This document shows positions 4,068 to 57,181 of a DNA stretch of 64,000 nt, piece by piece. This DNA is from Bacteriovoracia bacterium (GTDB lineage: Bacteria; Bdellovibrionota; UBA1018; CAIPTA01), in assembly GCA_050246755.1 (NCBI GenBank), contig JBFWVL010000001.1, forward strand, positions 1,036,611 to 1,100,610, read 5' to 3'. The notes under the pieces are model-generated. The model was given only the letters and a program-made list of their open reading frames with translations. It made no database searches and was not told where the DNA came from. How positions within the stretch are numbered: the first letter of the stretch is position 1; each line of letters begins with the position of its first letter. Made by a program: the position numbers and the translations under genes.

Positions 4068-4083
4068 GCTAAGCGCATAAAAA

Positions 4084-4127
4084 GCAAAATCCCGCGTAGC
4101 CCAAGGCAACGCGGGATTTTGCTTTTT
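4084..4127. terminator. Bidirectional rho-independent terminator between convergent genes
   Basis: 13-bp perfect stem gcaaaatcccgcg / cgcgggattttgc with T-runs on both strands. Confidence 0.75.
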
Positions 4128-4136
4128 CCAGAGCAA

Positions 4137-5164: not shown

Positions 5165-5291
5165 AAACCGATCCTCCTACCGAAAAGTATAGCATTTCGC
5201 ACGCTCGGCTCAAGGGTTATGTCATAGAGGGTAAAGCACTGTAAGTTTTCGCTTTTTTCTGCTATTTCCCAAAAGGAAAGACAGGTGCCTT

Positions 5292-18422: not shown

Positions 18423-18426
18423 GGCA

Positions 18427-19509: not shown

Positions 19510-19515
19510 TTGGCC

Positions 19516-20301: not shown

Positions 20302-20331
20302 CTTAAATCAGGGGGACAAACCCCACAATAG

Positions 20332-20820: not shown

Positions 20821-20835
20821 GAGGAAATTTCCCGC

Positions 20836-22239: not shown

Positions 22240-22242
22240 TCA

Positions 22243-29925: not shown

Positions 29926-30942
29926 TTATACTCTATAATACTGCCGGTACCAGGCCACGAACTTCTTCACGCCGTCTTCGATGGAAGTGGCGGGCTTAAA
30001 ACCCACGTCGCGCACCAGATCTTCTACGTCAGCAAAAGTTTCGGGCACGTCACCCGGCTGAAGAGGCATAAGATTCTTAATGGCTTTCTTTCCCACTGCT
30101 TTTTCGATCGCCTCAATAAAGTGCATTAAATCCACGGGCTGATTGTTGCCGATATTATAGAGGCGGTAGGGAGCTGTGCTGGTGGCAGGATCCGGCGCAT
30201 TGGAATCCCAATTGGCATTTGGAGCAGCCACTTTATCCAAAGCGCGTACCAGGCCCTCCACGATATCTTCCACAAAAGTAAAATCGCGGCGCATGTTCCC
30301 GCCATTGAAAACATCGATTGGCCTTCCTTCGAGAATGGCCTTTGTGAAAAGGAAAAGCGCCATGTCCGGGCGCCCCCATGGGCCGTAGACCGTAAAAAAC
30401 CGCAGGCCCGTGACCGGCAAGCGATATAAATGAGCGTAGGTATGAGCCATAAGCTCATTCGCTTTTTTGGTGGCGGCGTATAGCGAAATGGGATGATCCA
30501 CGTTCTGATGCACCGAAAAGGGCAGCGAGGTGTGAGCACCATAAACAGAGGAAGTAGAGGCATATACCAGGTGCTGCACTTTATGGTGCCGGCAGCCTTC
30601 AAGAATATGCAGAAAGCCGGTAATGTTGCTGTCCACATATACGTGCGGGTTAGTGATCGAGTAGCGTACGCCCGCCTGAGCGGCCAGATGAACCACACGA
30701 TCGAAATTTCCTTCACTTAATATCGTATCTATGGCCACGCGATCCGCGAGATCGGCTTTATGGAAACGGAAATTTTTCATGCCTAAAAGCTGGGCCAGAC
30801 GCGCCTGCTTGAGTGAGACGTCATAGTAGTCATTGATATTATCGAGGCCGACCACTTCGTCGCCGCGCGCCAAGAGACGCTGACTCACGTGGAAACCAAT
30901 AAAACCCGCGGCGCCGGTAACCAATACCTTCATAGCCGCCAA
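29926..30942 (-). CDS. NAD-dependent UDP-uronate 4-epimerase (CapI / UDP-glucuronate 4-epimerase family)
   Basis: [46 protein letters not shown], characteristic of the CapI/GAE family. Confidence 0.8.
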
Positions 30943-32246
30943 ACCTCGAACCCGAGCTTACCAAGAGTTTCGCGGTCGAAAGCGGCCTTTACGTCCATAA
31001 AAGGAGCGTGAGGACCGGCAAGCTTCGCGAGGGCTGCCAATTCGATTCCTAAAATTTGTTTGTGAGAAACTGCAGCCACGATGGCTTCATATTTAGGCTG
31101 GCTCTGCCAATCGACGAGGTCCACGCCGTATTCATGCTTGGCCTCAGCTTTATCGGCCACGGGATCCCAGACGTGAACCTTGAGGCCGTAACTCTGAAGC
31201 TCCGCGATCACGTCGATTACTTTGGAGTTCCGTAAATCGGCGCAATTTTCCTTAAAGGTGATCCCCATTACGAGCACGGGGGCTCCCTGAATGGAGCGGC
31301 CATTTCGGCTCATGCTCTTCACGGTTTGTTCCGCGATAAAAGCCCCCACTCCGTCATTAATGCGACGGCCAGCCAATATCACTTGCGGATGATAGCCAAG
31401 CATCTCGGCCTTATGGGTCAGGTAATAAGGATCTACGCCGATGCAATGGCCGCCAACGAGGCCGGGGCGAAACGGAAGAAAATTCCACTTAGTGCTCGCC
31501 GTCTTAATTACGTCGCTGGTATCGATTCCCATGCGGTGAAAAATAATCGCTAGTTCATTCATTAGGGCGATATTGAGATCGCGTTGGGTATTTTCAATTA
31601 CCTTGGCAGCCTCGGCCACCTTGATACTGGCGGCCTTAAATACTCCGGCTTCAATTACCTGGCCGTAAAGCCAGGCTACCTGTTCGAGGGTGGCCGCATC
31701 CTGCCCCGATACCACTTTCACAATTCTCTCGAGAGTATGCTCTTTATCTCCGGGATTAATTCTTTCAGGAGAATATCCCACGGTAAAATCACGGCCGCAT
31801 TTCAATCCGGAATGCTTCTCCAACAAGGGCACACAATAGTCTTCGGTCACGCCGGGGTATACCGTGGATTCGTAAATCACGATGGCACCCTTTTTGAGGT
31901 TTTTCCCTACCGTAGCGCTTGCCCCGTCCAGGGGGGAAAGATCAGGGCGTTTCGCCTCGTCGATCGGAGTGGGCACGGCCACCACCACAAAATCGGCCTT
32001 CTTTAATTCGGCTGGGTCGGTAGTATAAACAATTTGTTTTGCCGCCTGAAATTTTTCAGAATCCATTTCACCGGTTGGATCTATGCCTTTTCGGTAGGCA
32101 TTGATCTTCGATTCGGAAAGATCGAAGCCAATGGTGTTCATTTTGCGGCCGAAGCCAAGGGCGAGGGGTAAGCCCACGTATCCTAGGCCAAGAACTGCTA
32201 CGGTTTTTTGGGGGGTCATGGATAGCCTCCGCGCAGACCATACCAC
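30930..32246 (-). CDS. UDP-N-acetyl-D-glucosamine (or galactosamine) 6-dehydrogenase, TviB/WbpO/WbpA/Cap5O family
   Basis: Long colinear identity to Tvi[92 protein letters not shown]. Confidence 0.9.
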
Positions 32247-38870: not shown

Positions 38871-40883
38871 TTAGCGCTTGTTGGCGCCGCTCTTTCGAGT
38901 TCCACGATAGCGTGCCAAGACCGTATAGCCCCCATCGGCCAAAATCGTTTTCGGCCACCCACAGCCCTTCGCGCACGCGGCCAAGGCAGAATCGGTGGAA
39001 GAATTCTGGCCGCTTTGGCTGAATGTCCAGCCAGAATCCCAGGGCCAATGCAGACCTTCCTTCTGACCGGCGCGCACACCTTCCAAGACCACGAACCGGC
39101 CAATTTTCACCGCTAACGTAATGGATTCGTTCCTCGCCGGGAATTTCAATTCATACCATCGCTTACTGCGTGGGTTGAGAGAAAGGGTTTCCTGGTAGCT
39201 ACCAGACTCGATGAGAATTTCTACTGGAGAGAAAGAGCGATTCTGCAATAGAAACGCCGTAATTGGCGAAGAGTTTTTTCCGGGAGTTAGGGCAACTAGC
39301 CCCTTCTCGAGAAGAAATGGCTGCACTGGGCTGGCAAAAGAATAGATTTCCTGTCTTCCCGGCATACGGAAAGGATCATCGGCTCCCAGCAAAGGCAAGA
39401 AAACCGCTTTCCGATCCACTAAGCCGTTGGCTAGAGCGTGATAAAGGCTTTCCTCTTCGGCGTAGACGATCGTTTCTCCCGGAGGAACCAGCTGCCTCAA
39501 AGCTTCGGCCTGGCCATCCTCCATGTAGAAATCCGGAAGACGCGTGATGGCCCTCTGCCAAAATAACAAGCTCTCCCAGTTCTCCACCGGCCCAAGTAGG
39601 CCGCGCTTCGCCACAATAAGCCGATCCACCAACAAACCGGCGAGCGCAATATAAGCCACGACCGCCAGCGCCGAAAAAGAGCGTGCTTTCCCCTTGCGAT
39701 AGCAAAAACGAATCAACGAAAATGCTCCTGCCGCCCAACAACCGCTAAGCAGCAAACCTAGAGGCAACAATAGACGAATCACCAATTCTCCCGGATAGCC
39801 GGGAAGAACATAAAAGAGGCCGAGACCCATTAGGCAAAGCAGCAGAGCTAAAATCACCGAATAGAATTCTCGTTTCGATCGTGTAAGCGAAATAAATCCG
39901 AGGCCAAGCAGAATAAAGACCGATGCAAATCCCCCACGTTGCTGCAAGAACCACTGCAGGACTGAACGTATCGATACGTCTACATTAAGTAGATCAAGGC
40001 CGAGGTGGGCGCCAAAACTACAGCCCACGCCCGGAGCCTTAAAAAGACCGGCGACTAGTTTTGCAAGAATTGCAATCCCGACCAAGACCGCTGCTGACCC
40101 CAGGCCCCTCCGGAGTTTTTTACGATTTTTGACCAACAATAAAGCGGCGGAGATTCCAGCAAGGGCGAATCCCAGTGGATGCATGAGCACCGAAAAGCCT
40201 GCGCACAAGCTTGCGGCTATAACTGCGTATTTTCCCTCGCGACGGCAAAACCACCAACTCATCACGGCTAGGGCTACGCATAGATTGGTAGGTACAATAT
40301 ACTGCCAGCCAGCTCCTGGATATTTGAGCGTAGTGAAAAATAACAAGAAGATTCCCGCGGCCCCTAAGCCGAAAATATCTCCGACGAGTAGGGTAAAGGC
40401 TAAGGCCAAAAACAAACCGCCGAAAATCACTAAGCATGCATAAGCAATTTCCCAGCTCCCTAATGCAAAACGAAAGCCATTGAGGGCGAGGGAGTGCAGC
40501 ACCGAATAGTTACAGAGAATCCGGCCAATATATCGATCTTGCAGAGCAGGAATAACCGGCGATCTTCGCGCTTGCTCAAGAACGGAAGCGTACGAAAGGC
40601 ATTTTGTGAGGGGCACGCAGTGAATAGCGGCATTCGCCTTGTGTATGTAGGCGTAGGCATCGTCTGGCTCCGTTAAAGAGTTCGTCATAAATACGGCAGG
40701 AAATAAATAGAACCCGTATACGGTTAGATGGAAAAGAACCGCTATGCCGAAGAATAGACAAATGGACCATGATTTGGATCCGGCGGGGGCGAATTTGAGC
40801 ATTTTTACCTCGGAAATTGGTTCGGGGCCGAAGGTAACGTGACTGCGGAGAACGCACAACCCGGGAGACCGAAACAAAGGCAC
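38871..40883 (-). CDS. Large membrane protein (N-terminal multi-TM domain + ~280 aa C-terminal soluble domain), unknown function; true start probably MLKFAPAG
   Basis: Hydropathy pattern only. Confidence 0.45.
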   Translation of the reverse strand: MPLFRSPGLCVLRSHVTFGPEPISEVKMLKFAPAGSKSWSICLFFGIAVLFHLTVYGFYLFPAVFMTNSLTEPDDAYAYIHKANAAIHCVPLTKCLSYASVLEQARRSPVIPALQDRYIGRILCNYSVLHSLALNGFRFALGSWEIAYACLVIFGGLFLALAFTLLVGDIFGLGAAGIFLLFFTTLKYPGAGWQYIVPTNLCVALAVMSWWFCRREGKYAVIAASLCAGFSVLMHPLGFALAGISAALLLVKNRKKLRRGLGSAAVLVGIAILAKLVAGLFKAPGVGCSFGAHLGLDLLNVDVSIRSVLQWFLQQRGGFASVFILLGLGFISLTRSKREFYSVILALLLCLMGLGLFYVLPGYPGELVIRLLLPLGLLLSGCWAAGAFSLIRFCYRKGKARSFSALAVVAYIALAGLLVDRLIVAKRGLLGPVENWESLLFWQRAITRLPDFYMEDGQAEALRQLVPPGETIVYAEEESLYHALANGLVDRKAVFLPLLGADDPFRMPGRQEIYSFASPVQPFLLEKGLVALTPGKNSSPITAFLLQNRSFSPVEILIESGSYQETLSLNPRSKRWYELKFPARNESITLAVKIGRFVVLEGVRAGQKEGLHWPWDSGWTFSQSGQNSSTDSALAACAKGCGWPKTILADGGYTVLARYRGTRKSGANKR

Positions 40884-40988: not shown

Positions 40989-41942
40989 ATGAACTTCGCC
41001 ATCACCGGGGTAGCAGGTTACATTGCGCCGCGACATCTGAAGGCAATACGTGATGTGGGAGGCAATCTCATTGCGGCTCTCGATCCGCACGACGCCGTGG
41101 GAGTACTCGACCAGTACTTTCCCTCTGTTCGCTATTTTACGGAATTCGAGCGCTTTGATCGCGACCTCGAAAAGTTGCGCCGTCAAGGCGGCTCTTCGCG
41201 CATTCACTACCTAACGGTTTGCTCGCCCAATTATTTACACGATGCTCATATCCGCGCGGCCCTTCGAGTGGAAGCGGACGCTATTTGCGAAAAACCTCTG
41301 GTTCTCAACCCGTGGAATCTCGACGCTCTCGCCGAATTGGAAAAGGAATACGGCAAACGCGTTTACACGATCCTTCAGCTGCGCGTCCATCCTGCGATCC
41401 TCGCTATTCGCGAGCAGTACGGCAAAGACCGCGCTAAGCGCCACCAAATTAATCTTACTTATATAACCTCACGCGGGAACTGGTACCTCACCAGCTGGAA
41501 AGGAAATATCGAGCGATCGGGTGGCCTAGCCACCAATATCGGCGTGCATTTTTTCGACATGCTCCAGTGGATCTTCGGTAAGACCACGAGAAGCGAGGTT
41601 CATTTTTCTTCTCCCACCACCATGTCCGGATTTTTAGAGCTGGAAAACGCGGACGTGCATTGGTACCTCTCCATTGACTCGGAAAACTTGCCGAGCAACT
41701 GCAAGGAAAAAAACCAGCGCACCTTCCGTTCGATTACCATCGATGGCGCCGAAGTGGAGTTTTCCGACGGGTTCGCCGACCTGCACACCAACGTATACCG
41801 CGAGATTCTCGCGGGCAAAGGCCACGGGATCGAAGACGCACGCGCATCGATCGAACTGGTGCACCAAATCCGGGTAGCCAAAGCCAATCCTTCCTCTAAA
41901 AATCTGCACCCTTATTTTCGGGAAAAGCACGGGAAGCCTTGA
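40989..41942 (+). CDS. wbpB: UDP-N-acetyl-2-amino-2-deoxy-D-glucuronate 3-dehydrogenase (WbpB/WlbA-like, Gfo/Idh/MocA family)
   Basis: Near-colinear with P. aeruginosa WbpB: FAITGVAGYIAPRH, CSPNYLHDAHIRAALRVEADAICEKPLV, TYITSRGNWYLTSWKG, ATNIGVHFFDMLQWIFGK, FSDGFADLHT. Confidence 0.85.
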   Translation: MNFAITGVAGYIAPRHLKAIRDVGGNLIAALDPHDAVGVLDQYFPSVRYFTEFERFDRDLEKLRRQGGSSRIHYLTVCSPNYLHDAHIRAALRVEADAICEKPLVLNPWNLDALAELEKEYGKRVYTILQLRVHPAILAIREQYGKDRAKRHQINLTYITSRGNWYLTSWKGNIERSGGLATNIGVHFFDMLQWIFGKTTRSEVHFSSPTTMSGFLELENADVHWYLSIDSENLPSNCKEKNQRTFRSITIDGAEVEFSDGFADLHTNVYREILAGKGHGIEDARASIELVHQIRVAKANPSSKNLHPYFREKHGKP

Positions 41943-41957
41943 AAGCAAAATTTCACG

Positions 41958-42806
41958 ATGATCACCTCTACTAGCTCTCCCCCACCCATTACTAGGATGG
42001 TAATCTTAACCGCAGATGACTCCACCTGGATGCTGCCGGCTTGGGCGGAGGCGATGAATTTTTTAGCCAAGGACTTTTCGGTCGTCGGCATATGGGTATT
42101 ACCAAACCACTTAGGAAAACTTCGCGGTAAGGCTATTTTTAGCTGGTATCTATCTACGTTCGGACTGAAAAATATGCTTTTGCTCGGCATGTTTGCCGGG
42201 CTCGCAAAAATTAGAAACGTTCTCCGCAGACAGAATTCATGGCGTTCCATAGCAGACCGCCACGGAACCGAATTACACTTTACGGCGAACCCCAACACTC
42301 GCGAACTGATTGACTGGATCAAAAACAAAGAAATCGATATCGGACTCACGAGCGTAGGAAACTATTTGAAAGAACCGCTTTTGCAATCCGTGAAAATTGG
42401 TTTTATCAATAAGCATGCCGCGGTATTGCCCCAAGCCAAGGGAATCTTTCCCTATATCTGGTCAGTCTTAGAAAGCGTACCTCTCGGTGTCACTTATCAT
42501 AAAATGGTTCCGGAAGTAGATGCTGGCCCGTACCTACTCCAATGGGAAAGGGACGGTTCTTGCTCTACCCCAAGCATGCTAAGGTTCTATTTTGAGGTTT
42601 TCGCCCGTTTTCCCGCTGAAATTGCGGAGGCGGCCAAAAGGCTCCGCGAAGGAAAGTTCCTGTCTAACCCGAATACCCAGATGAAAGGTACTTACTTCTC
42701 GTTTCCTGAGCGTAAACATATTATTTCCTTAGAAAAGATGGGTGGTAGGATTGCGAAAGGAAGGGATATTTTCTACATCCTGTACATATGGCTTTTGCGG
42801 CAATAA
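41958..42806 (+). CDS. Formyltransferase-domain protein (Fmt/ArnA N-domain-like sugar N-formyltransferase candidate)
   Basis: NKHAAVLPQAKGIFPYIWSVLESVPLGVTYHKMVPEVDAGPYLL aligns with ArnA [44 protein letters not shown]. Confidence 0.6.
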   Translation: MITSTSSPPPITRMVILTADDSTWMLPAWAEAMNFLAKDFSVVGIWVLPNHLGKLRGKAIFSWYLSTFGLKNMLLLGMFAGLAKIRNVLRRQNSWRSIADRHGTELHFTANPNTRELIDWIKNKEIDIGLTSVGNYLKEPLLQSVKIGFINKHAAVLPQAKGIFPYIWSVLESVPLGVTYHKMVPEVDAGPYLLQWERDGSCSTPSMLRFYFEVFARFPAEIAEAAKRLREGKFLSNPNTQMKGTYFSFPERKHIISLEKMGGRIAKGRDIFYILYIWLLRQ

Positions 42807-43738
42807 ATATCAATTTTGATTCTCTTGGCGAGATGTTCGGCTTTCCCGAAGGCTTCCGCGATCCATGTTTTTTTCAAGTGGCCGATCGTTTTTTTAAAAT
42901 CGCCGATAAGTATAACTTTCGCTACAGCATTTACGTGATCGGGAAAGATCTCGAAAACCCGATCAATCAAGAAGCCGTAAGAAGCTGGCAGGCAAAGGGT
43001 CACGAGATAGGTAGCCACTCCTTCAGTCACCGCAATGATCTTGGTGCACTTTCCCCTCGGGAAATTAGGGAAGAAGTATCTCGCGCGCACGAGATACTTA
43101 CGAAAACTCTTGGACAACCAGTAAGGGGATTTATTGCTCCCGGCTGGTCTGCTTCTTCTGAGCTTCATTCCGCCTTGCTAGAACTGGATTACGAGTATGA
43201 TACTTCTTCATTTCCATCTTGGCTGATGTTCCCTGCGCTCGCAAAATTGAGCATGAATTATCGTGGCGACCACCGCGCTAGCCGTTTTTGGCGACGAAAA
43301 GACTTTCATTATCATTTGGCGGGATCTCGGAAGCCCTATACTTCTATGGGAAAATTGTTCGGTAGCCTACCGACCGGAAAAAAAGAACTTTTGATTTTAC
43401 CGCTTCCCACGAACCACTTTCGCTTTGCTTGCTGGCATACGATTGGATTTATGTTTGGTTGGAAATTTCATAAAAAATTACTACAGCAGTGCTTAAAGCA
43501 AAACGACCTCTTTTATTACCTCACCCATCCGGCTGACCTTCTCGACCGCGCTGATATTCCTGAAGGGCTGGGCAGTCGTTTCGAACGAATGGAAATGCCA
43601 CTTGAGGAAAAAATTCAGCGCTTTGAAGACTGTATCGAGCAAATTATTAGATCAGGAAAAAAAATCGTCACGATGGGTCAGCTGGCAGATATTGCCCGGC
43701 GGCGAATTTACGAAAATAGGAAAATCCATGTCGGCTAA
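42788..43738 (+). CDS. NodB-homology polysaccharide deacetylase / deformylase (ArnD/LgmC-like candidate)
   Basis: HSFSH motif 2, FIAPGW motif 3 region. Confidence 0.7.
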   Translation: MAFAAININFDSLGEMFGFPEGFRDPCFFQVADRFFKIADKYNFRYSIYVIGKDLENPINQEAVRSWQAKGHEIGSHSFSHRNDLGALSPREIREEVSRAHEILTKTLGQPVRGFIAPGWSASSELHSALLELDYEYDTSSFPSWLMFPALAKLSMNYRGDHRASRFWRRKDFHYHLAGSRKPYTSMGKLFGSLPTGKKELLILPLPTNHFRFACWHTIGFMFGWKFHKKLLQQCLKQNDLFYYLTHPADLLDRADIPEGLGSRFERMEMPLEEKIQRFEDCIEQIIRSGKKIVTMGQLADIARRRIYENRKIHVG

Positions 43739-44312
43739 TGAAACATTCATTCACGATTCAGCTTACGTAGACGAAGGCGCCGAAATCGGCGCCGGCACTA
43801 AAATCTGGCACTACTCTCATATCTCCGCGCCCGCAAAGGTGGGGAAAAACTGCGTATTCGGCCAAAATGTTTTTGTGGCCCGTAATGTTTCGATCGGCAA
43901 TCACGTGAAGATTCAGAACAATGTATCGGTCTACGAAGGCGTTATTCTCGAAGACTACGTGTTCTGCGGCCCTAGCTGCGTATTTACCAACGTGAAAACT
44001 CCGCGATGCGAGTTTCCCCGGAATACTTCCAAAGACTACGCCGAAACGCGCGTGAAACGCGGGGCCAGCATCGGGGCGAACGCCACGATCGTTTGCGGCA
44101 TCACCCTGAACGAAAATGCTTTCGTGGCCGCCGGCGCGGTGGTTACCAAGGATGTTCCCGCTTTCGCGATGGTCGCCGGCGTGCCCGCTAAGATCGTAGG
44201 GTGGATGAGCGCTTACGGCGACGTCCTCCATTTCGACGAAAAAGGCGAGGCGATCGATTCGATCGGCGCCCGCTATCGCAAACAAGGCGAGTCCGTGGAG
44301 AAGCTGGGATGA
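43728..44312 (+). CDS. wbpD: Left-handed beta-helix N-acetyltransferase, WbpD/WlbB-like (UDP-GlcNAc3NA 3-N-acetyltransferase). The start is set at an internal ATG 11 nt before the upstream stop; the track ORF 43602 is an upstream extension
   Basis: IWHYSHISAPAKVG...IQNNVSVYEGV...CGPSCVFTNV...GANATIVCGITL...AFVAAGAVV...VPAKIVGWMS matches WbpD along its length. Confidence 0.8.
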   Translation: MSANETFIHDSAYVDEGAEIGAGTKIWHYSHISAPAKVGKNCVFGQNVFVARNVSIGNHVKIQNNVSVYEGVILEDYVFCGPSCVFTNVKTPRCEFPRNTSKDYAETRVKRGASIGANATIVCGITLNENAFVAAGAVVTKDVPAFAMVAGVPAKIVGWMSAYGDVLHFDEKGEAIDSIGARYRKQGESVEKLG

Positions 44313-45415
44313 AGCAAATCCCCATCCTAGATCTCGGCCCTCAGTATTTCCGTCTCAAGCCGCAAATAGACCGCGCCATCGCGTCCGTGATGGAAAGCGG
44401 CAATTTCATCATGGGTAAAGAAGTAGAGCTCTTCGAAAATGAGGTGGCTAAGTATAGCGGCGTGAAATACGCCGTGGGCCTAAATTCGGGAACCGATGCG
44501 CTCGTGATCGGCTTACGCGCCCTCGGTATCGGCGCCGGCGACGAAGTAATTACTTCAAGCTTCAGTTTTTTCGCTACAGCGGAGGCGATTAGCTTGCTCG
44601 GCGCGAAACCCGTATTCGTGGACATTGATCCCGGAACGTTCAATCTAAATCCGGAACTGCTACCCGAGGCCTTAACAAAAAAAACCAAGGCGATTATTCC
44701 GGTTCATCTCTTTGGGCTAGGCTGCCAAATGGGCCCGATTTTAGAATTCGCGCAAAAGCATAGTTTAAAAGTTTTAGAAGACTGCGCTCAGAGCTTCGGC
44801 GGTCACGAAACAACGAGTGGGAATTTTCTCGGCTCTTTGGGACATGCCGGCGCCCTTTCTTTCTTTCCCTCGAAAAATCTCGGCGCCGCCGGGGATGCAG
44901 GCATGCTGCTCACTAACGATTCGGCAGTGGCGGAACAGTCCCGTGCGCTGCGAACCCATGGCGGCAAGAAAAAATATTTCAATGAAACCGTGGGCTATAA
45001 TTCTCGCCTCGATACGATCCAAGCCGCGATCCTGCGGGTAAAGCTTCCGCACCTGGATTCTTGGAACAAGGAGCGCTTTGCGGTAGCACAGAGTTACCAT
45101 GAGCTGCTTTCTGGTATTCCGGGCCTCGCCTTGCCGGGATTGGTTTCCGGCCACGCTTTCCACCAATTTACCGTACGCTTGTCCCACGTAAATCGCGATG
45201 CGGTGCAAACCAAGCTCGCCGCGAAGGGTATTGCCACGATGATTTATTATCCCGTGCCGATTCACCGCCTACCCGTTTACGCCGGCCAATACGCGCCCCT
45301 TCCCGAGTGCGAGAAAGCGGCGGCGGAAGTGCTAAGTTTGCCAATAGGCCCGGGAATGCCAGATTCCAATTTGGAAACCGTTGCTACAGAATTACGGAGC
45401 CTGCTCACCCAATGA
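44309..45415 (+). CDS. wbpE: DegT-family aminotransferase, WbpE/WlbC-like (UDP-2-acetamido-2-deoxy-3-oxo-glucuronate aminotransferase). The start is an ATGA overlap with the wbpD stop
   Basis: MKQIPILDLGPQY, SFFPSKNLGAAGDAGML. Confidence 0.85.
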   Translation: MKQIPILDLGPQYFRLKPQIDRAIASVMESGNFIMGKEVELFENEVAKYSGVKYAVGLNSGTDALVIGLRALGIGAGDEVITSSFSFFATAEAISLLGAKPVFVDIDPGTFNLNPELLPEALTKKTKAIIPVHLFGLGCQMGPILEFAQKHSLKVLEDCAQSFGGHETTSGNFLGSLGHAGALSFFPSKNLGAAGDAGMLLTNDSAVAEQSRALRTHGGKKKYFNETVGYNSRLDTIQAAILRVKLPHLDSWNKERFAVAQSYHELLSGIPGLALPGLVSGHAFHQFTVRLSHVNRDAVQTKLAAKGIATMIYYPVPIHRLPVYAGQYAPLPECEKAAAEVLSLPIGPGMPDSNLETVATELRSLLTQ

Positions 45416-46467
45416 AAATAGTTACGGTTCTCGGCGCCAGACCCCAGTTCATTAAGGCCGCTCCCGTGTGCCACGCCCTCAAGAGGGGCGGGCATGAAGA
45501 AATTCTCGTTCATACCGGCCAGCATTACGACGCCAACATGTCGGATGTCTTTTTCGACGAGCTGAATATCCCTAAACCAGCCGTGAATCTGCAGGTGGGA
45601 TCGGGCACGCACGGAAAGCAGACGGGCGAAATGCTCGCCAAGATTGAAGAGGTTTTAACCCAGCATAAACCCGATCATTTGCTTGTATATGGAGACACGA
45701 ATTCCACCCTCGCCGGCGCCCTCGCCGCTTGCAAGCTAGGGATCCCCATCGCCCACGTAGAGGCCGGGTTACGCTCCTTTAATCGCTCCATGCCGGAGGA
45801 GCATAACCGCGTGCTTACCGATCATTGCTCGGAACTTCTGTTCTGCCCTACCGAAACGGCCGTGAAGCACCTCAAAAATGAAGGCATTCAAAAGGGCGTG
45901 CATAAAGTGGGCGATACGATGCTCGATGCAGTTTTGCAGTTCAGGCAGATCGCCGCCAAGAAAAGCCGCGCCATGCATACCCTTTCCCTTCAGCCCAAAG
46001 AATTTTACCTCGCTACGATTCATCGTCCTTACAATACGGATGACCCGAAAGCATTAAAAGCCGCTCTCGAAGCCCTAAGCGCTCTAGGGAAAGCGGTCGT
46101 TTTTCCGTTACACCCCCGCACCAGGCCGAAAATAGCTGGGATCAAGATTGGATCGAACGTGAAACTTTGCGACCCCCTGGGTTATCTCGACATGCTTTTA
46201 CTCCAGGAAAATGCGCGAATCGTGCTCACCGATTCTGGAGGAGTGCAAAAAGAAGCCTTTTTTCTAAAGACGCCCTGCGTTACCTTGCGTACCGAAACGG
46301 AATGGGTCGAAACCGTCGAGACAGGATGGAATATAGTCGTGGGCACCGATCCCTCCGGTGTAGTAAAAGCGGTGAAAGCCTTCGAGAATAATACCCCTCA
46401 GCCCCCAGCCAATTTTTTCGGTTCGGGCGATGCGGCCGACCGGATCGTGAAGATCCTGGGCGCCTAA
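45412..46467 (+). CDS. wbpI: Non-hydrolysing UDP-GlcNAc-type 2-epimerase, WbpI/WlbD-like (start ATGA-overlapped with the upstream stop)
   Basis: MKIVTVLGARPQFIKAAPV...HTGQHYD...YGDTNSTLAGALAA. Confidence 0.85.
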   Translation: MKIVTVLGARPQFIKAAPVCHALKRGGHEEILVHTGQHYDANMSDVFFDELNIPKPAVNLQVGSGTHGKQTGEMLAKIEEVLTQHKPDHLLVYGDTNSTLAGALAACKLGIPIAHVEAGLRSFNRSMPEEHNRVLTDHCSELLFCPTETAVKHLKNEGIQKGVHKVGDTMLDAVLQFRQIAAKKSRAMHTLSLQPKEFYLATIHRPYNTDDPKALKAALEALSALGKAVVFPLHPRTRPKIAGIKIGSNVKLCDPLGYLDMLLLQENARIVLTDSGGVQKEAFFLKTPCVTLRTETEWVETVETGWNIVVGTDPSGVVKAVKAFENNTPQPPANFFGSGDAADRIVKILGA

Positions 46468-46476
46468 GGAGAACAT

Positions 46477-47457
46477 ATGAAGAAGAAAACCATCCTCATC
46501 ACCGGCGTAGCCGGCATGATTGGCTCCCACTTACTCGACCAGCTGATGGAACGTAACTACGAGGTAATCGGAGTGGACGACCTTAGCTACGGAAAAATGG
46601 AAAACATCCAGCACCATATGGGTAAGCCGAATTTCCGTTTCTACCGCGTGGATGTTTTAGATTTTGAGACGCTGAAAATTCTCGGCCGAGACGTGGCCAC
46701 CATCGCGCATCTCGCGGCGGTGAAGAAAATTTCCGAATCCGAACCCGCCATGCCCACGCTCAGCGTGAACGTTAAGGGTACGGAAAACGTGCTCGAAGTA
46801 GCCAAGATGTGGGGTTGTAAGGTGGTGTTCGCCTCTACCTCCGACGTGTACGGAATGTCTCCCGATCTCCCCTACCGAGAAGATGGAGACCTTCTTCTCG
46901 GCCCCAGCATGATTAAGCGCTGGAGCTATGCCGTATCCAAACTCTACGGCGAGCAAATGGCTTTCGCTTACTACAAAGACTACGGAGTACCGATCGTTTG
47001 CATTCGTTACTTCGGAGGCTTTAGCCCACGCTCGAGTTTCAAATGGAGCGGCGGACACGTACCGATCTTTATCAATAGCATCTTAAACGACGAAGAAATT
47101 ATTGTGCACGGAGATGGCGAACAAACCCGCTCAATGGGATTCGTGACCGACCTAGTGGAGGGAACCGTGCTTGCTATCGAGAGTGAAAAAGCGGTAGGTG
47201 AAATCATTAATCTCGGAAATACCGAAGAAATTAGCGTAATCGATACGGCTAAAATGATTCACCGCCTGGCCAAAACCGGCAAAGAGCTGAAAGTGAAATT
47301 CGTTCCGATGAAGGAGGTTTTCGGCCAATATAAGGACATTATGCGCCGCCAGCCCGACCTCACCAAAGCCCGTACGCTGCTAGGCTACGAACCCAAAGTA
47401 AGCCTTGAGGAAGGCATTCGCCAAACTCTCGCCGAAGTACGTAAGCGGAACGGCTAG
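46477..47457 (+). CDS. Extended SDR resembling the ArnA C-terminal UDP-glucuronate decarboxylase domain / UXS family
   Basis: VFASTSDVYGM, GPSMIKRWSYAVSKLYGEQ, GEIINLGNTEE parallel ArnA STSEVYGM / KPRWIYSVSKQL / GEIINIGNPENE. Confidence 0.75.
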   Translation: MKKKTILITGVAGMIGSHLLDQLMERNYEVIGVDDLSYGKMENIQHHMGKPNFRFYRVDVLDFETLKILGRDVATIAHLAAVKKISESEPAMPTLSVNVKGTENVLEVAKMWGCKVVFASTSDVYGMSPDLPYREDGDLLLGPSMIKRWSYAVSKLYGEQMAFAYYKDYGVPIVCIRYFGGFSPRSSFKWSGGHVPIFINSILNDEEIIVHGDGEQTRSMGFVTDLVEGTVLAIESEKAVGEIINLGNTEEISVIDTAKMIHRLAKTGKELKVKFVPMKEVFGQYKDIMRRQPDLTKARTLLGYEPKVSLEEGIRQTLAEVRKRNG

Positions 47458-48209
47458 TGGCTAAGGCTTTCGTTATCGCGCCCGTACTTAACGAGGCCGA
47501 GAACCTCCCTACTCTCACGCGTAGCTGGAAAGAGCTCTCCCTTGCGTTTCCAAGCTGGAAATTCGAGTTCGTTTTAATAGACGACGGCTCTTCCGACGGC
47601 ACGAAAGCCAGCGCCGAAAAAATGGCAGCCTCGCTTGGGCTAAACTGTCGCGTTATCCGTCATGAACAGAACCAAGGCCCCGGCGCGGCCTTCGCCTCCG
47701 GTTTTACCTATGTGGCCGAAATTTTACGGCCCGAAGATACCGTGATTACAATGGAAGGAGATAATACCTCTCGTATTGCGACGTTAAAAATTATGCTCGA
47801 TCGTATGGAACGGGAAAACGTGGAAGTAGCCCTCGCTTCTCCCTATGCCTACGGCGGTGGGATCATCAATACTTCGCTCTACCGCATGATTCTCAGCCAT
47901 TTTGCAAATGGCATGGTGAAAAGCTTCCTCGACATTCACGGTATCCATACCATGAGTTCTTTTTTCCGAGCCTATCGCGGTTCCGTTATCCTCGGGCTGC
48001 AAAAAAAATGGGGCCCCAGGATTTTGGAGCGCAATGGTTTTGAATGCATGATTGAGCTCCTCAAAAAAATGATCCTCGCCGGCGCCACGATCACCGAAGT
48101 TCCCATGCGCCTCGATACTTCTTTGCGTAAAGGGAAAAGCAAAATGAAGGTAATGCGCACCATCCGGGGCTATTTTGCCGTAATCTGGATCTCCCGGGCC
48201 TGGAAATGA
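47457..48209 (+). CDS. GT2 polyprenyl-phosphate sugar transferase (ArnC/Dpm1-like); GTG start overlapping the upstream stop
   Basis: FVLIDDGSSDGT, GT2 fold, short hydrophobic C-terminus. Confidence 0.7.
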   Translation: MAKAFVIAPVLNEAENLPTLTRSWKELSLAFPSWKFEFVLIDDGSSDGTKASAEKMAASLGLNCRVIRHEQNQGPGAAFASGFTYVAEILRPEDTVITMEGDNTSRIATLKIMLDRMERENVEVALASPYAYGGGIINTSLYRMILSHFANGMVKSFLDIHGIHTMSSFFRAYRGSVILGLQKKWGPRILERNGFECMIELLKKMILAGATITEVPMRLDTSLRKGKSKMKVMRTIRGYFAVIWISRAWK

Positions 48210-49702
48210 AGCGGGACGCTCTCTGCCTCTCCATCGCTGCCGCCTTTCTATTTTTGATCGAAGCCCTTGCCTGGCCGTTAGCGGCCGGCCGCGACGGACA
48301 CTCCTATCTCTACTACGCTTACGATTTTTTTAGCTTGGTTCCCGAAGACAGATTCACCATGCTCTTCCGTACGCCAATGGCTCCTTTTTTTGATTTTATT
48401 TTGCTTACCTACCTTCCACCCTGGGGGGCTGAATTGGCGATGGGAGCCTTGTTCGTAGCCCTCATTCTGAGCCTCTATCGAATCGGTTTATTTTGGGGCC
48501 GCAAAGTCGGCTTATTTTTTGCCGGCCTTTTCCTTTTTCATTTCGGCTGGGGATCCTTATTTCACGTAGTCTCTAACGATCCGCCGCTGGCCATTCTAGC
48601 TCCTCTCTTATTATGGGCTACGCTGGCCTCCGTAAAAACCCAGCGTCCTATTCGTTTTTTCCTGGTCGGGCTTCTCGTTGGCCTCTTCACCCTTACCCGC
48701 CCGGGGATTTTTCCGGCCCTTGGCCTCTTACCTATATTTCTGTGGAATTTTTCCTGGCCAAAGAAACTGGTGAGTGTTTGCGCCTTCTACATGGCTTGCC
48801 TGCCCATCCTGCTGGCCTGGAGTTTCTGGAACTACAGCCACTACGGGTTTTTCTCCATGGCTCCCGGAGCCAACGTGGTATTGCCGCTCGGCCGCGTACT
48901 GGCCCAAGAACAAATTCTCCGTGAGGAAAATGGTCCTAATTCCGCCGAGCTGGCTAAAGCGGTGCGGGAATTTATCCTCCAGCCGATTGGAAGCACCCAG
49001 GACGCCAATGAATACTTTCTTTCTCACCCCCGCTACTTCGAGTACATGCTGCTCGCCGACAAGGCATGGGGCACCGGTAACTATACCATTCTCCAAAAGG
49101 CGGCTTGGGAAGCGGTGGCTGCGCAGCCCGGAAAGTATTTCTGCGGAGTGGCAAAAACGATCTTGCTCTCGATGGCGGGAAACCTAAAACAGCCCGTGCC
49201 ACTGCAAAGTGGCGCCCGCGTTCACACGCATAAAGGCCATGTGTCCTATACGCTCGATACCCAGGACCAATGGATTCCCTTAAAAGAGTTTAACTTTTCC
49301 GCTCCGCTAGGCGGAGACGGGATTTCCGGCGTAATGGCAAAGCTCGGCCCGAATTCTCTCCGCGCCTGGAACTTCATGCGCTCTTTTCCCAAGCGCGACG
49401 GATGGATTCAGGTGGGAACAATCTTGAATTGGATGGCGTATCTCTTTCCACCAATCCTACTTTGGCTTTTGGCCGTTCTTCTCTGGCCTATTAGAAAAAA
49501 GAAAATTGCGCCGCTGGAAATTGGGCTTCTATACTTCTGGCTACTCTGCCTGGCCACCAATGTCCTAGCATCTTTTTCTATATGGAGCGTGATCTACGAG
49601 TATCGTTTACCATTCGATCCCGTCTACGTATTGACCGGGGGACTAGCTTTCCTGCATCGCTTTTGGCCAAAAGCTCTAGAAGATACGCCTAATGCAAGCT
49701 AG
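48206..49702 (+). CDS. Polytopic membrane protein, GT-C-like (ArnT/PMT-like candidate)
   Basis: About 12 TM helices. The first external loop has RDGHSYLYYAYDF (acidic motif). The gene is translationally coupled to the GT2 upstream. Confidence 0.5.
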   Translation: MKRDALCLSIAAAFLFLIEALAWPLAAGRDGHSYLYYAYDFFSLVPEDRFTMLFRTPMAPFFDFILLTYLPPWGAELAMGALFVALILSLYRIGLFWGRKVGLFFAGLFLFHFGWGSLFHVVSNDPPLAILAPLLLWATLASVKTQRPIRFFLVGLLVGLFTLTRPGIFPALGLLPIFLWNFSWPKKLVSVCAFYMACLPILLAWSFWNYSHYGFFSMAPGANVVLPLGRVLAQEQILREENGPNSAELAKAVREFILQPIGSTQDANEYFLSHPRYFEYMLLADKAWGTGNYTILQKAAWEAVAAQPGKYFCGVAKTILLSMAGNLKQPVPLQSGARVHTHKGHVSYTLDTQDQWIPLKEFNFSAPLGGDGISGVMAKLGPNSLRAWNFMRSFPKRDGWIQVGTILNWMAYLFPPILLWLLAVLLWPIRKKKIAPLEIGLLYFWLLCLATNVLASFSIWSVIYEYRLPFDPVYVLTGGLAFLHRFWPKALEDTPNAS

Positions 49703-56533: not shown

Positions 56534-57181
56534 TCATTTCGTTGCCACCACGAAGTATCCCGTGGTGAGGGAAGAACGTTGTTTTCTAAAAATTTTCTCC
56601 ACCAGCCAAAAAAGAGGCTCGGCAAAATATAGCAGCTTACGCGAGATCTTCACCGAAAGCTTTCGTTGGCCCGGGTGTGCGTATCCCGTAGCGGCTTCGA
56701 GGGCGTCGAACAGAATCGCGCCCAGACCGCCCATTTCGCTAATCGAAAAATTGCGGAATCCGGCTCGGCTAAGCAAAAGGGCAGTGCCCGCCCGAGTGAA
56801 ACGGAAAAAATCCTGTTCTGCATCTCCATGCACCGGGCATTGTAGCGGAACCGATAGTATCAACCGCCCGCCCTGTACGAGCAGGCGGTTCATTTCCGTA
56901 AGGGCAGCGGCGGGATTCGAAACGTACTCCAATACTTCCGTCATCACGATCAAATCAAAGCTGCTGTCGGTGGCCGGAATACTTTCCGCTCCCGCCAGGA
57001 AATCGGGCTCCGCGGCGGCGTCCGGATTGGCATATTTCCAAGAGCTCACTTGACCCAGTGGCGGGCGAAAGCGGCCGCGCTTATTCGATTTCCGCCCTCC
57101 CACGTCCAGCACACGACCGGCCATCGTCGGCAACAATGCTTCCAGCTCGGCATCGAGGTATTCCCGCCGAAAAGTAATCAT
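56534..57181 (-). CDS. Class I SAM-dependent methyltransferase (Methyltransf_11-like); start taken at MITFRREY
   Basis: RVLDVGG motif I, DLIVMTEVLEYV, GGRLILSV. Confidence 0.7.
   Translation of the reverse strand: MITFRREYLDAELEALLPTMAGRVLDVGGRKSNKRGRFRPPLGQVSSWKYANPDAAAEPDFLAGAESIPATDSSFDLIVMTEVLEYVSNPAAALTEMNRLLVQGGRLILSVPLQCPVHGDAEQDFFRFTRAGTALLLSRAGFRNFSISEMGGLGAILFDALEAATGYAHPGQRKLSVKISRKLLYFAEPLFWLVEKIFRKQRSSLTTGYFVVATK

Follow-up and report, generated by a model that had tools for sequence, protein, structure and literature searches.

A nine-gene operon of a Bacteriovoracia genome joins Wbp-type genes to a putative extracytoplasmic glycosylation system

Can a single operon couple the synthesis of a 2,3-diacetamido-uronic acid to an Arn-type route, in which an amino sugar is transiently N-formylated on its way to a lipid carrier? 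The question is raised by a locus in the metagenome-assembled genome of a member of the Bacteriovoracia, a relative of predatory bacteria. A preliminary description of a 64,000-nucleotide stretch of this genome (the window) had proposed that every component type of the Arn/Lgm lipid A modification systems is interleaved there with a WbpB-D-E-I gene set. The reading that we prefer, and to which we give about an even chance of being correct, is that of a composite operon centred on a system of three components for extracytoplasmic (periplasmic) glycosylation, to which a formyltransferase (FT) and a NodB-type gene are accessory.

Nine co-directional genes of the plus strand (g1-g9) occupy positions 40989-49702, within a glycan locus that exceeds 35 kb in length. 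The reading frames exist as first described and are tightly packed; overlaps of 1-19 nt occur at g2/g3, g3/g4, g4/g5, g5/g6, g7/g8, and g8/g9, g6 and g7 are 9 nt apart, and g1 is separated from g2 by 15 nt, or by 54 nt if g2 begins at the NCBI start of 41997 rather than at 41958, the start of the longest open reading frame. Given these overlaps, and promoter and terminator signals within the block that do not rise above chance, the block is one operon.

Four of its products can be assigned, at the level of family or fold, to the diamino-sugar-acid pathway, and the Wbp set is genuine. The g1 product (40989..41942), a predicted UDP-GlcNAcA 3-dehydrogenase of the GFO/IDH/MocA family, matches both the N- and the C-terminal GFO_IDH_MocA domains of Pfam and aligns over its full length (356 bits, E 2e-105) with WbpB of P. 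aeruginosa (3oa2) and of Thermus (3o9z). The g4 product (43731..44312, its start corrected from 43602) has the Hexapep repeats of the LbH fold and is matched by Bordetella petrii WlbB (3mqg; 208.5 bits, E 7e-61), which points to a WbpD/WlbB-type UDP-GlcNAc3NA 3-N-acetyltransferase. The counterparts of g1 and g4 in loci L002 and L003 are 77-79% and 81-84% identical, respectively. The g5 product (44309..45415) scores 377 bits against DegT_DnrJ_EryC1 and, among known structures, 338 bits with 7b0d, 307 with DesV, 282 with WbpE, and 275 with QdtB, versus 170 with ArnB; it is thus, at family level, a WbpE-type C3 sugar aminotransferase and not the ArnB-type enzyme that had been suggested. The g6 product (45412..46467) exceeds the cut-off of the wecB model TIGR00236 (333.6 bits against 210), as expected of a non-hydrolysing UDP-HexNAc 2-epimerase of the WecB/WbpI family, and its homologues (37-47% identity) adjoin SDR-GT2 or FT-NodB units in L025, L026, L036, L038, and L040. 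Outside the operon, on the minus strand at 30930..32246, lies a predicted WbpA/TviB-type UDP-GlcNAc 6-dehydrogenase (484 bits with NF011729 TviB; 380 bits, above the cut-off, with the nucleotide-sugar dehydrogenase model TIGR03026) that reaches just 34-134 bits with UDP-Glc dehydrogenase models. This enzyme, encoded 9 kb upstream, would supply UDP-GlcNAcA, and together with g1, g4, and g5 it could convert UDP-GlcNAc to UDP-GlcNAc3NAcA.

The last three genes encode an extended SDR (g7, 46477..47457), a GT2 of 250 aa (g8, 47457..48209), and a 498-aa multipass membrane protein (g9, 48206..49702). The g8 product (74.7 bits with Glycos_transf_2) has Pyrococcus Dol-P-Man synthase as its top structural match (5mlz, 42 bits, residues 3-248, the whole catalytic domain), in keeping with the polyprenyl-phosphate type originally proposed; PpgS is its top NCBIfam match (37 bits), and ArnC matches its N-terminal part only (29 bits). 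The family has at least 1002 homologues, which JGI names dolichol-phosphate mannosyltransferase. The protein is probably a soluble DPM1-like polyprenyl-phosphate sugar synthase, of the broad DPM1/GtrB/ArnC type, but without the transmembrane anchor that GtrB and ArnC possess. For g9, which has no match in Pfam and whose family has no Pfam model of its own, the GT-C fold is established at fold level; the figure of 12 transmembrane segments first given is approximate, simple hydropathy finding 9 and the AF2 model about 11-12 helices. Divergent from the operon lies g0 (38871..40883, minus strand), encoding a 670-aa multipass membrane protein with about 10 hydrophobic segments that has no match in Pfam or NCBIfam and is unrelated to the g9 family by hhalign. 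A homologue of g0 (72 bits, 680 aa) starts the L026 module, where it is followed by B12-rSAM, GT2, FT, NodB, 2-epimerase, and SDR genes; g0 is possibly a second lipid-carrier-dependent transferase.

How closely does this assembly resemble the Arn system? The working mode would be like that of Arn, Lgm, and Gtr-type systems, but there is no orthology: every Arn equivalog model falls short of its cut-off by a wide margin, and the block cannot be called an Arn/Lgm orthologue set. To say that every component type of Arn is present goes too far: the operon contains no ArnE/F- or GtrA-like flippase candidate, and its sole DegT, of the C3 type, had been counted as both WbpE and ArnB.

The genes that most evoke Arn are g2 and g3. 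The g2 product (41997..42806) is a divergent formyltransferase-like protein that barely passes the Formyl_trans_N cut-off (27.9 bits against 26.1, residues 119-197 only) and carries the motif KHAAVLPQAKG...GVTYHKMVPEVDAG, as first reported, and a hydrophobic 19-mer at residues 52-70. Its top structural matches are WbtJ (4nv1, 30 bits), PseJ, and Fmt, with ArnA_N at 23 bits. It is no less similar to the sugar N-formyltransferases (WbtJ, PseJ, VioF) than to Fmt, and an alignment of its family (A3) shows N138, H140, and D175 without variation. The NodB-fold deacetylase/deformylase g3 (42788..43738; 61 bits with Polysacc_deac_1) was thought ArnD/LgmC-like; the fold is right, but ArnD (8t0j, 18 bits; 30.5 against a cut-off of 382 for the NCBIfam model) is no nearer to it than peptidoglycan deacetylases such as H. 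pylori PgdA (3qbu, 38 bits, the top match). D11, H77, H81, and H247 are invariant in its family (A4), and it has no signal peptide.

Together g2 and g3 are a conserved two-gene cassette; of the 32 loci retrieved with the FT family, 24 have NodB adjoining FT, as do all six early-retrieved loci whose FT is at least 36% identical. In this genome the cassette is inserted between wbpB and wbpD and is compositionally distinct (GC 0.45-0.46, with g2 at 0.463, versus 0.51-0.55 in adjoining genes). Elsewhere it lies inside SDR-GT2-(FT-NodB)-GT-C modules of other phyla, the modules of L008 and ERZ27297570 being of the form SDR-GT2-FT-NodB(-GT-C), and its presence there in unrelated lineages shows a functional link among these gene types. 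It also stands beside housekeeping genes (L007, L009) and, in Candidatus Uhrbacteria, beside 2-aminoethylphosphonate genes, and its substrate may therefore differ from the sugar handled by g7-g9.

The first alternative to be weighed is the earlier proposal in a strict sense, an Arn-type route that cannot do without the transient N-formyl group. Here g2 would N-formylate UDP-GlcNAc3NA, the 3-amino intermediate of WbpB and WbpE, or its decarboxylated product, g8 would load it onto undecaprenyl phosphate, g3 would deformylate it on the lipid, and g9 would pass the amino sugar, now cationic, on to lipid A or the core. Every enzyme type required sits in one operon, the N-H-D triad is intact in the FT, which is like the sugar N-formyltransferases, and g3, with its metal ligands and no signal peptide, fits an ArnD-like enzyme of the cytoplasmic face. 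DegT, SDR, GT2, GT-C, FT, and NodB also occur together in L024/ERZ1305449, and in ERZ27297570 a DegT lies 6 kb downstream of SDR-GT2-FT-NodB-PMT_2. However, the three closest syntenic operons (L002, L003, and JGI 3300059473) lack both FT and NodB yet retain SDR-GT2-GT-C; the GT2/GT-C route can therefore do without the cassette, and the transient N-formyl step cannot be intrinsic to that route, contrary to what had been supposed. In addition, the retained WbpD would acetylate the same 3-amine, ArnD is no special relative of g3, and there is no sign that lipid A is the acceptor. Most FT-NodB loci, the compact L008 and L026 modules included, have no sugar aminotransferase, so that an order in which deacetylation precedes formylation is no less likely than Arn-style protection and deprotection. 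We consider the strict route unlikely; the best reading of the cassette is an optional, horizontally inserted accessory for N-acyl editing of the SDR-GT2-GT-C sugar.

Might the pathways merely share a transcript? In that case the UDP-ManNAc3NAcA made by WbpB/D/E/I would go into repeat units assembled in the cytoplasm, SDR-GT2-GT-C would add a neutral pentose (xylose from UDP-GlcA) as a side branch in the periplasm, as Gtr systems do, and FT-NodB would act on another substrate, for example that of the CDP-amino-sugar pathway at 17-23 kb. UDP-xylose synthase is indeed the nearest match of the SDR, the FT-NodB cassette is mobile among unrelated contexts, and the window also encodes another DegT and a CDP-glucose 4,6-dehydratase/RfbH pathway. 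In Flavobacteriales, Leptospiraceae, and another Bacteroidota-like contig the SDR-GT2 pair recurs, the SDR at 45-66% and the GT2 at 53-58% identity, with large membrane proteins nearby, of which the Leptospiraceae one matches PMT_2. Within 9 kb of the Flavobacteriales pair (SDR 66% identical) there is no Wbp, dehydrogenase, or epimerase gene, so that the SDR substrate need not be a Wbp product. Against such independence, the locus lacks a UDP-glucose 6-dehydrogenase, its sole dehydrogenase being of the UDP-GlcNAc type, and a WecB/WbpI-type 2-epimerase repeatedly stands beside SDR-GT2 (L038, L040, L026, L036), which indicates an N-acetylated substrate; it is 42-47% identical in Leptospiraceae and the Bacteroidota-like contig. 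The order WbpB-WbpD-WbpE-epimerase-SDR-GT2-g9 is preserved in the three closest operons, and the colinearity of Wbp with SDR-GT2-GT-C recurs in no fewer than five loci and again in a second architecture, independent of the first (L024: a WbpB/D fusion, epimerase, DegT, two SDRs, GT2, two PMT_2-type GT-Cs, FT, and NodB). FT-NodB, moreover, lies elsewhere directly within SDR-GT2-...-GT-C modules. The core kept across phyla is a 2-epimerase, a 'TSD' SDR, a GT2, and a GT-C. Mere cohabitation is, in our judgment, improbable, and the recurrent colinearity makes plausible the fusion of the two routes originally envisaged, the chemistry of which we infer.

The chemistry turns on g7, which at family or fold level is best placed with the UXS/ArnA-type oxidative decarboxylases. 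It carries STSDVYGM, KRWSYAVSKLYGEQ, and GEIINLGN, as first noted, and scores 167 bits with human UXS1, 149 with the UDP-GlcA 4-epimerase BcUGAepi, and about 93 with ArnA_C; a striking similarity to ArnA_C is thus an overstatement. The decarboxylase assignment carries the caveat that the 4-epimerase follows UXS1 closely and that Asp takes the place of the catalytic Glu of UXS and ArnA. The T-S-D of g7, a member of a 'TSD' subfamily, aligns with T118-S119-E120 of UXS, YxxxK is present, and an Arg aligns with R277, catalytic residues of the decarboxylase and not the epimerase type. Its homologues (89-90% identical in L002/L003, 66% in the Flavobacteriales genome, and 45% in that of the Leptospiraceae) always lie directly upstream of the GT2. 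Of seven further SDRs adjoining g8-type GT2s, six retain ASTSDVYG, YAxSK, and MRRxPD; the second SDR of L024 reads ASTDDVYG, and the third motif is divergent in both L024 SDRs. The score and the Asp could suggest a C4-epimerase or 4-reductase, with GT2/GT-C delivering an intact 2,3-diacetamido-uronic acid (e.g., the galacto or talo isomer) through undecaprenyl phosphate, much as in the Rhizobium LpsL/RgtE/RgtA-D route for GalA, but this is very doubtful, since the epimerase has Ser at the acid position (TSS) and no R277-equivalent Arg, and g7 and most orthologues keep both acid and Arg.

In the composite operon that we favor, g7 would strip C6 from a UDP-2-acetamido- or UDP-2,3-diacetamido-hexuronic acid supplied by other enzymes of the operon, yielding a UDP-N-acetyl- or diacetamido-pentosamine that g8 would load onto undecaprenyl phosphate. 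A flippase would carry the lipid-linked sugar across the membrane, and g9 would transfer it on the periplasmic side. The cassette could act in the Arn manner, N-formylating a free amine and deformylating it once the lipid is loaded, or in reverse, by de-N-acetylation and then N-formylation. The likeliest acceptor would be the polysaccharide for whose assembly the locus has numerous GT1, GT2, Wzy_C, and ABC-transporter genes, and not specifically lipid A. We infer the sugar, the acceptor, the lipid carrier, and the order of the FT/NodB steps. One nine-gene operon thus brings together a diamino-sugar-acid pathway that is already known and an uncharacterised enzyme set of wide conservation, which probably shortens the sugar acid, loads it onto a membrane lipid carrier, and attaches the sugar outside the cytoplasm.

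The block at 40989-49702 in this metagenome-assembled Bacteriovoracia genome (Bdellovibrionota) is filled by nine plus-strand open reading frames whose junctions are overlaps or gaps of no more than 15 nt (54 nt before the formyltransferase gene if the NCBI start at 41997 is used). The acetyltransferase (43731), the epimerase (45412) and probably the formyltransferase (41997, as at NCBI) start at positions other than those of the longest open reading frames. A scan for promoters and terminators inside the block gave only signals at or below chance, relative to the shuffled expectation, and an Rfam search of the window revealed no RNA element. Eight of the nine products were placed in families by Pfam and NCBIfam. 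At NCBI, the product of the last gene (48206-49702, 498 aa) is 100% identical to [quoted passage not shown], and the other products have generic names only.

The block is part of one very large surface-glycan locus that extends from about 17 kb to 61 kb of the window. This locus also encodes a CDP-sugar pathway (RfbF, RfbG, a second DegT aminotransferase and RfbH), a NodU-like carbamoyltransferase, a second, AglJ-like polyprenyl-phosphate GT2, a TviB/WbpA-type UDP-GlcNAc 6-dehydrogenase, a YfhO-like protein, a Wzy_C protein, several GT1 and GT2 glycosyltransferases, a PglK/MsbA-like ABC transporter, many methyltransferases and a second NodB-family protein. The CDP-sugar genes (17298-25289, minus strand) specify a glucose-1-phosphate cytidylyltransferase, a CDP-glucose 4,6-dehydratase, the second DegT protein (290 bits to that of the block) and an RfbH-type 3-dehydrase, and are followed by the carbamoyltransferase; they suggest that an amino and/or carbamoylated dideoxyhexose is present in the same glycan. 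The AglJ / dolichyl-phosphate hexose transferase-like GT2 (25292-26716, plus strand), which has a 230-aa N-terminal extension, and the 813-aa YfhO-like membrane protein (32262-34703, minus strand) may make up a further glycosylation pair of the lipid-carrier/GT-C type. BatA/BatB-like VWA-domain proteins of a Bacteroides aerotolerance-type operon (13382-17297, plus strand), which are unrelated to the present finding, are encoded immediately upstream of the large locus. Divergent from the operon is a gene for a 670-aa membrane protein with about 10 hydrophobic segments (38871-40883, minus strand), which has no match in Pfam or NCBIfam and whose homologue (72 bits) is the first gene of a module on another contig, L026. 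A relationship to the GT-C protein of the block was considered and dropped (hhalign probability 0.6% against that family); the 670-aa protein may be another lipid-carrier-dependent transferase.

The Wbp part of the operon appears to be genuine, as the preliminary description had stated. The products of 40989-41942, 43731-44312 and 44309-45415 are, to judge from their alignments with solved enzymes, clear orthologues of WbpB (356 bits to 3oa2, over the full length), WbpD/WlbB (208.5 bits to the UDP-GlcNAc3NA N-acetyltransferase WlbB, 3mqg) and WbpE (282 bits to 3nyu). In its PDB scores, the last of these ranks with the C3 aminotransferases DesV (307 bits), WbpE and QdtB (275 bits), with ArnB (170 bits) far below. 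The 2-epimerase (45412-46467) can be assigned to the WecB/WbpI family; it scores 333.6 bits against the general wecB equivalog model and so passes the cut-off of 210, although that model does not fix the substrate. The dehydrogenase of the larger locus (30930-32246) would be of the UDP-GlcNAc rather than the UDP-glucose type: its 484 bits to the TviB model are below the cut-off of 592, but it passes the subfamily model. The likeness to the UDP-ManNAc3NAcA pathway of Pseudomonas aeruginosa and Bordetella (WbpA/B/E/D/I; WlbA-D) thus comprises three orthologues, the epimerase family and a WbpA/TviB-type dehydrogenase. There are two differences: wbpA is located outside the operon and, whereas in the known systems the product is consumed by cytoplasmic glycosyltransferases, here and in several other lineages the Wbp genes are colinear with a module composed of a decarboxylase-type SDR, a GT2 and a GT-C protein.

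The SDR of this module (46477-47457) has human UXS1 as its best PDB match (167 bits) and is less close to a Bacillus UDP-GlcA 4-epimerase (149 bits) or to the ArnA C-terminal domain (about 93 bits), and it reaches 120 bits against the PRK11908 model, the cut-off of which is 294. HMMER alignments put a Thr-Ser-Asp at UXS1 T118-S119-E120 and match an Arg to UXS1 R277, and the protein also has the YxxxK motif; at the T118-S119-E120 and R277 positions, the 4-epimerase has Thr-Ser-Ser and no Arg. The motifs ASTSDVYG, YAxSK and MRRxPD are retained in six of the seven other SDRs that adjoin a GT2 of the same type. The two SDRs of the L024 contig are partly deviant, one having ASTDDVYG and both having a divergent Arg motif, and two unrelated neighboring SDRs were epimerase-like. 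Because of this residue pattern relative to the 4-epimerase, and its conservation in the SDRs beside the GT2, we class the protein as a probable decarboxylase-type SDR with an unusual Asp, the activity being read from its residues. The extended SDR architecture, the catalytic Thr, the Tyr-x-x-x-Lys and the UXS Arg liken it to UXS1 and to the Ralstonia UDP-4-keto-pentose/UDP-xylose synthase, and the Bacillus cereus UDP-GlcNAcA decarboxylase (UXNAcS) may be a comparable enzyme. It differs from the UXS type in the Asp that replaces the catalytic Glu (TSD, not TSE) and in its constant pairing with a DPM1-like GT2. In alignment A5, the SDRs so paired form a subfamily in which Asp replaces the catalytic Glu of UXS and ArnA (ASTSDVYG). 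Within the window's own lineage, no gene of the operon is better conserved than that of the SDR, with 89-90% identity as against 58-65% for the GT-C protein.

Its partner, the GT2 at 47457-48209, aligns from residue 3 to 248 with residues 24-248 of Pyrococcus dolichol-phosphate mannose synthase (42 bits), whereas its similarity to solved ArnC (29 bits) is confined to the N-terminal third (the first 100 residues). It belongs to a large family named dolichol-phosphate mannosyltransferase (DPM1) at JGI, and its best NCBIfam match is PpgS (37 bits, cut-off 370). Polyprenyl-phosphate GT2s consist of a GT-A domain followed by interface helices, and the bacterial members usually have one or two C-terminal transmembrane helices; hydropathy analysis of the protein encoded here detected no hydrophobic segment.

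The product of 48206-49702 has no Pfam or NCBIfam match (PMT_2 appears only at E 0.017), and its family, for which an exhaustive profile search gave 736 cluster representatives, has no Pfam model of its own; PMT_2 was matched by 41 of the 82 aligned members. Profile searches of PDB sequences with the family retrieved nothing relevant, a scan of species genomes with a 6-sequence alignment found no relative and so gave no named cultured genome that carries the gene, and fold comparison alone succeeded. An AlphaFold2 model based on the 6-sequence alignment was unusable (pLDDT 55.6), and we used instead the 82-sequence alignment, with which pLDDT rose to 94.9 and pTM was 0.93. The protein has the multipass fold of the GT-C superfamily, similarity to solved GT-C enzymes and a first extracytoplasmic loop in which a nearly invariant W-P-x-x-x-G-R-D motif directly follows TM1. 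The catalytic Asp of GT-C enzymes is located just after TM1 (PMC11127046).

The formyltransferase (41997-42806) and NodB-family (42788-43738) genes constitute a 1.8-kb insert between wbpB and wbpD. The first product passes the Pfam gathering threshold of Formyl_trans_N narrowly (27.9 against 26.1 bits), and its N-terminal 118 residues, which include a hydrophobic 19-mer, are outside the profile. Among solved structures it most resembles the sugar N-formyltransferases WbtJ and PseJ, then Fmt, with the ArnA N-domain lower; N138, H140 and D175 are invariant across its small family. This Asn-His-Asp triad in an HxSLLPxxRG...D context, together with the Pfam score, makes it a predicted sugar N-formyltransferase. 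The second product (Polysacc_deac_1, 61 bits) has the Asp-His-His metal site and catalytic His of NodB / carbohydrate esterase 4 enzymes: D11, H77, H81 (in HSxSH) and H247 are invariant, and motif 1 has a single Asp (DS, not DD). Its closest solved structure is Helicobacter pylori PgdA, and ArnD is no nearer to it than are peptidoglycan deacetylases. The GC contents of the two genes are 0.46 and 0.45 (GC3 0.52 and 0.445), compared with 0.51-0.55 (GC3 0.59-0.67) for their neighbors. In the three closest relatives of the GT-C protein (65, 58 and 42% identity), the operon reads WbpB-WbpD-WbpE-epimerase-SDR-GT2-GT-C, and the formyltransferase and NodB genes are absent from it. From this absence, the position of the insert and its low GC, it follows that the pair is accessory in the window. 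A second, shorter NodB-family gene (57178-57918, minus strand; 246 aa) has a 61% identical counterpart at 16645-17385 of L003, one of the loci closest to the window operon and one that lacks the formyltransferase-NodB cassette; in the relatives, a protein of this type might act as the deacetylase of the GT2/GT-C route.

Might the block nevertheless be a chance juxtaposition of unrelated genes? The fusion of Wbp and Arn-type routes proposed in the preliminary description is partly the product of a recent cassette insertion; the Wbp genes are colinear with the SDR-GT2-GT-C genes in several lineages. Conservation of the SDR-GT2 pair as a unit crosses phylum boundaries, with identities to the window proteins of 66% and 55% in Flavobacteriales, 45% and 58% in Leptospiraceae, and 43-44% (two SDRs) and 53% in a Bacteroidota-like contig. 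The Leptospiraceae and Bacteroidota-like loci also have a 2-epimerase accompanying the pair (42-47% identity to that of the window), and all three have large membrane proteins nearby, the Leptospiraceae one matching PMT_2. A more distant GT-C homologue (36%) likewise has genes for an SDR and a 2-epimerase in its company, together with GFO/IDH/MocA and DegT genes; another (29%) is within a Wzm/Wzt O-antigen locus. The formyltransferase and NodB genes are likewise a conserved pair: they adjoin in 24 of the 32 loci fetched by formyltransferase-family searches (L004 to L035), mostly in that order and on the same strand.

The architectures of these loci are diverse. In L008, a Marinilabiliales metagenome-assembled genome, a 705-aa membrane-plus-TPR protein precedes SDR (43%), GT2 (39%), formyltransferase and NodB genes; contig ERZ27297570 has SDR, GT2, formyltransferase, NodB and a PMT/PMT_2 protein. 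The L026 module consists of a 680-aa homologue of the divergent membrane protein, a B12-binding radical-SAM enzyme, GT2, formyltransferase, NodB, 2-epimerase and SDR, and in L004 the formyltransferase-NodB pair is followed by a convergent member of the GT-C family. L024/ERZ1305449 is an independent architecture that combines the same enzyme classes as the window: a WbpB/D fusion, epimerase, DegT, two SDRs, GT2, a 666-aa membrane protein and the formyltransferase, with a paralogous 670-aa, PMT_2-matching membrane protein and NodB on the opposite strand. The two paralogues (3318-5318, plus strand; 6152-8164, minus strand; both about 670 aa) flank the formyltransferase gene, one of them scoring above the Pfam cut-off for PMT_2, and only in L024 was a sugar aminotransferase seen near the formyltransferase-NodB pair. 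In L007 and L009, the pair is next to housekeeping genes. Since the gene combinations recur in independent architectures, chance juxtaposition is rejected as the main explanation.

Two further contexts were recorded. In four contigs of Candidatus Uhrbacteria and related CPR lineages (L005, L006, L011, L012), the formyltransferase-NodB pair follows immediately downstream of a group of 2-aminoethylphosphonate genes, which encode a PEP mutase fused to a nucleotidyltransferase, phosphonopyruvate decarboxylase, a class-V aminotransferase, a further nucleotidyltransferase and a sulfatase-like transferase, a hint that the cassette may act on primary amines besides amino sugars. The B12-binding radical-SAM enzyme recurs beside GT2-formyltransferase-NodB modules on two unrelated contigs (L026, 2549-4000; ERZ27297570); its recurrence suggests that some lineages C-methylate the same sugar or alter it by other radical chemistry.

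The preliminary description had viewed the block as an Arn/Lgm-like lipid-linked aminosugar module and had compared its members individually to Arn proteins. Its observations were largely right, all the quoted motifs being present, and its interpretation was partly so: the SDR has decarboxylase-type residues, the formyltransferase, NodB and GT-C assignments hold at the level of fold or active site, and the GT2 is probably of the lipid-carrier type. Scores against the Arn equivalog models were 108 (SDR) and 28.7 (formyltransferase) for ArnA (NF005998, cut-off 777), 204 for the aminotransferase and ArnB (NF008658, 631), 29.5 for the GT2 and ArnC (NF007986, 529) and 30.5 for the NodB protein and ArnD (NF011923, 382); no protein of the block reached a cut-off, and the ArnD structure 8t0j gave 18 bits with the NodB protein. 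In the PmrHFIJKLM (Ara4N) system of E. coli and Salmonella, ArnA is a fused formyltransferase and UDP-GlcA C4-oxidase/decarboxylase, whereas here the two genes are separate, 3.7 kb apart, and the SDR is nearer to UXS; ArnB is a C4 aminotransferase acting on UDP-4-keto-pentose, whereas the aminotransferase of the window is of the C3-specific WbpE type. In contrast to Arn, moreover, the GT2 is without a transmembrane anchor, the closest relatives do without the formyltransferase and NodB, and the block encodes neither an ArnT transferase of GT83 nor an ArnE/F- or GtrA-like protein. A true Arn orthologue is rejected, as every equivalog test fails.

What the block shares with Arn is a mechanistic logic common to the three-component periplasmic glycosylation systems: GtrA/GtrB/Gtr*, Bordetella LgmABC, Francisella FlmF2/NaxD/FlmK, mycobacterial PpgS/Rv3779 and the pentofuranose systems (Kelly et al. 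2024; PMC11127046). In these, a cytoplasmic synthase makes a polyprenyl-monophosphate sugar, which is flipped and transferred outside the cytoplasm by a GT-C enzyme; in the Lgm and Francisella systems, the lipid-linked N-acetyl sugar is the substrate of a deacetylase. With LgmA/B/C and FlmF2/NaxD/FlmK, the common ground is this general GT2, deacetylase and GT-C logic and not a comparison of sequences. The window differs in that its module is genetically fused to a 2-epimerase and to a dedicated, probable decarboxylase, the deacetylase has a formyltransferase beside it, the GT-C is of a family without a Pfam model and there is no flippase gene. By analogy, the block would work like the Arn, Lgm, Flm and Gtr systems without being an Arn family member: none of the equivalog tests succeeds, the aminotransferase belongs to the wrong class and a flippase is lacking. 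A literature search on Wbp-ArnT/undecaprenyl links, UDP-GlcNAcA/ManNAc3NAcA decarboxylases, Bdellovibrio lipid A glycosyltransferases and formyltransferase-deacetylase-GT-C systems found no description of such a module.

The recurrent core is thus 2-epimerase, TSD-type SDR, GT2 and GT-C; the formyltransferase-NodB pair is optional, and WbpB/D/E precede the core in the Bacteriovoracia-like loci and L024. The simplest chemistry consistent with all contexts, as far as sequences permit it to be judged, would have four steps. A UDP-HexNAc uronic acid would be made (in the window UDP-GlcNAcA, UDP-ManNAcA or the 2,3-diacetamido derivative from the co-operonic Wbp enzymes) and then decarboxylated; the resulting N-acetylated pentosamine would be loaded onto undecaprenyl phosphate and finally moved by the GT-C to an acceptor outside the cytoplasm. 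Since the SDR and GT2 of Flavobacteriales stand alone, the SDR need not have a Wbp product as its substrate. Judged by the surrounding locus and by the distant homologue in the Wzm/Wzt locus, a polysaccharide is a likelier acceptor than lipid A. Most likely, the formyltransferase-NodB pair edits the N-acyl state of the sugar and, because most loci with the pair are without an aminotransferase, an order with deacetylation first and formylation second is no less plausible than an Arn-style transient formylation.

A more far-reaching reading, which we consider less likely than not, is that the 2-epimerase, TSD-type SDR, 250-aa GT2, GT-C and optional formyltransferase-NodB pair are a widespread undescribed counterpart of Arn. 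By decarboxylation of UDP-ManNAcA- or UDP-ManNAc3NAcA-type acids, it would produce a lipid-linked 2-acetamido- or 2,3-diacetamido-pentosamine and install an N-formylated or free-amine sugar on surface glycans or lipid A, with the Wbp pathway feeding it in the window. The module was seen in Bdellovibrionota, Bacteroidota, Spirochaetota and other lineages, and we know of no characterized pathway that yields either pentosamine. Periplasmic decoration of surface glycans and lipid A via undecaprenyl-phosphate sugars controls charge, antimicrobial-peptide resistance, recognition by phages and predators, and serotype.

No concept is overturned by these observations; the class of mechanism is familiar from the logic of the Arn, Lgm and Gtr systems. 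Worthwhile leads are the TSD-SDR/GT2 unit, which is conserved, the GT-C family, which has no Pfam model, and the formyltransferase-NodB cassette. The locus points to a conserved uncharacterized donor-synthesis unit of several phyla, in which a UXS-like, probable TSD decarboxylase is paired with a DPM1-like GT2 and usually accompanied by a 2-epimerase and a GT-C, and to a formyltransferase-NodB cassette, likewise conserved, that can be added to units of this kind. Knowledge of the sugar would probably establish a new pathway for a nucleotide sugar and a lipid-linked sugar, and would also assign a function to the GT-C family.
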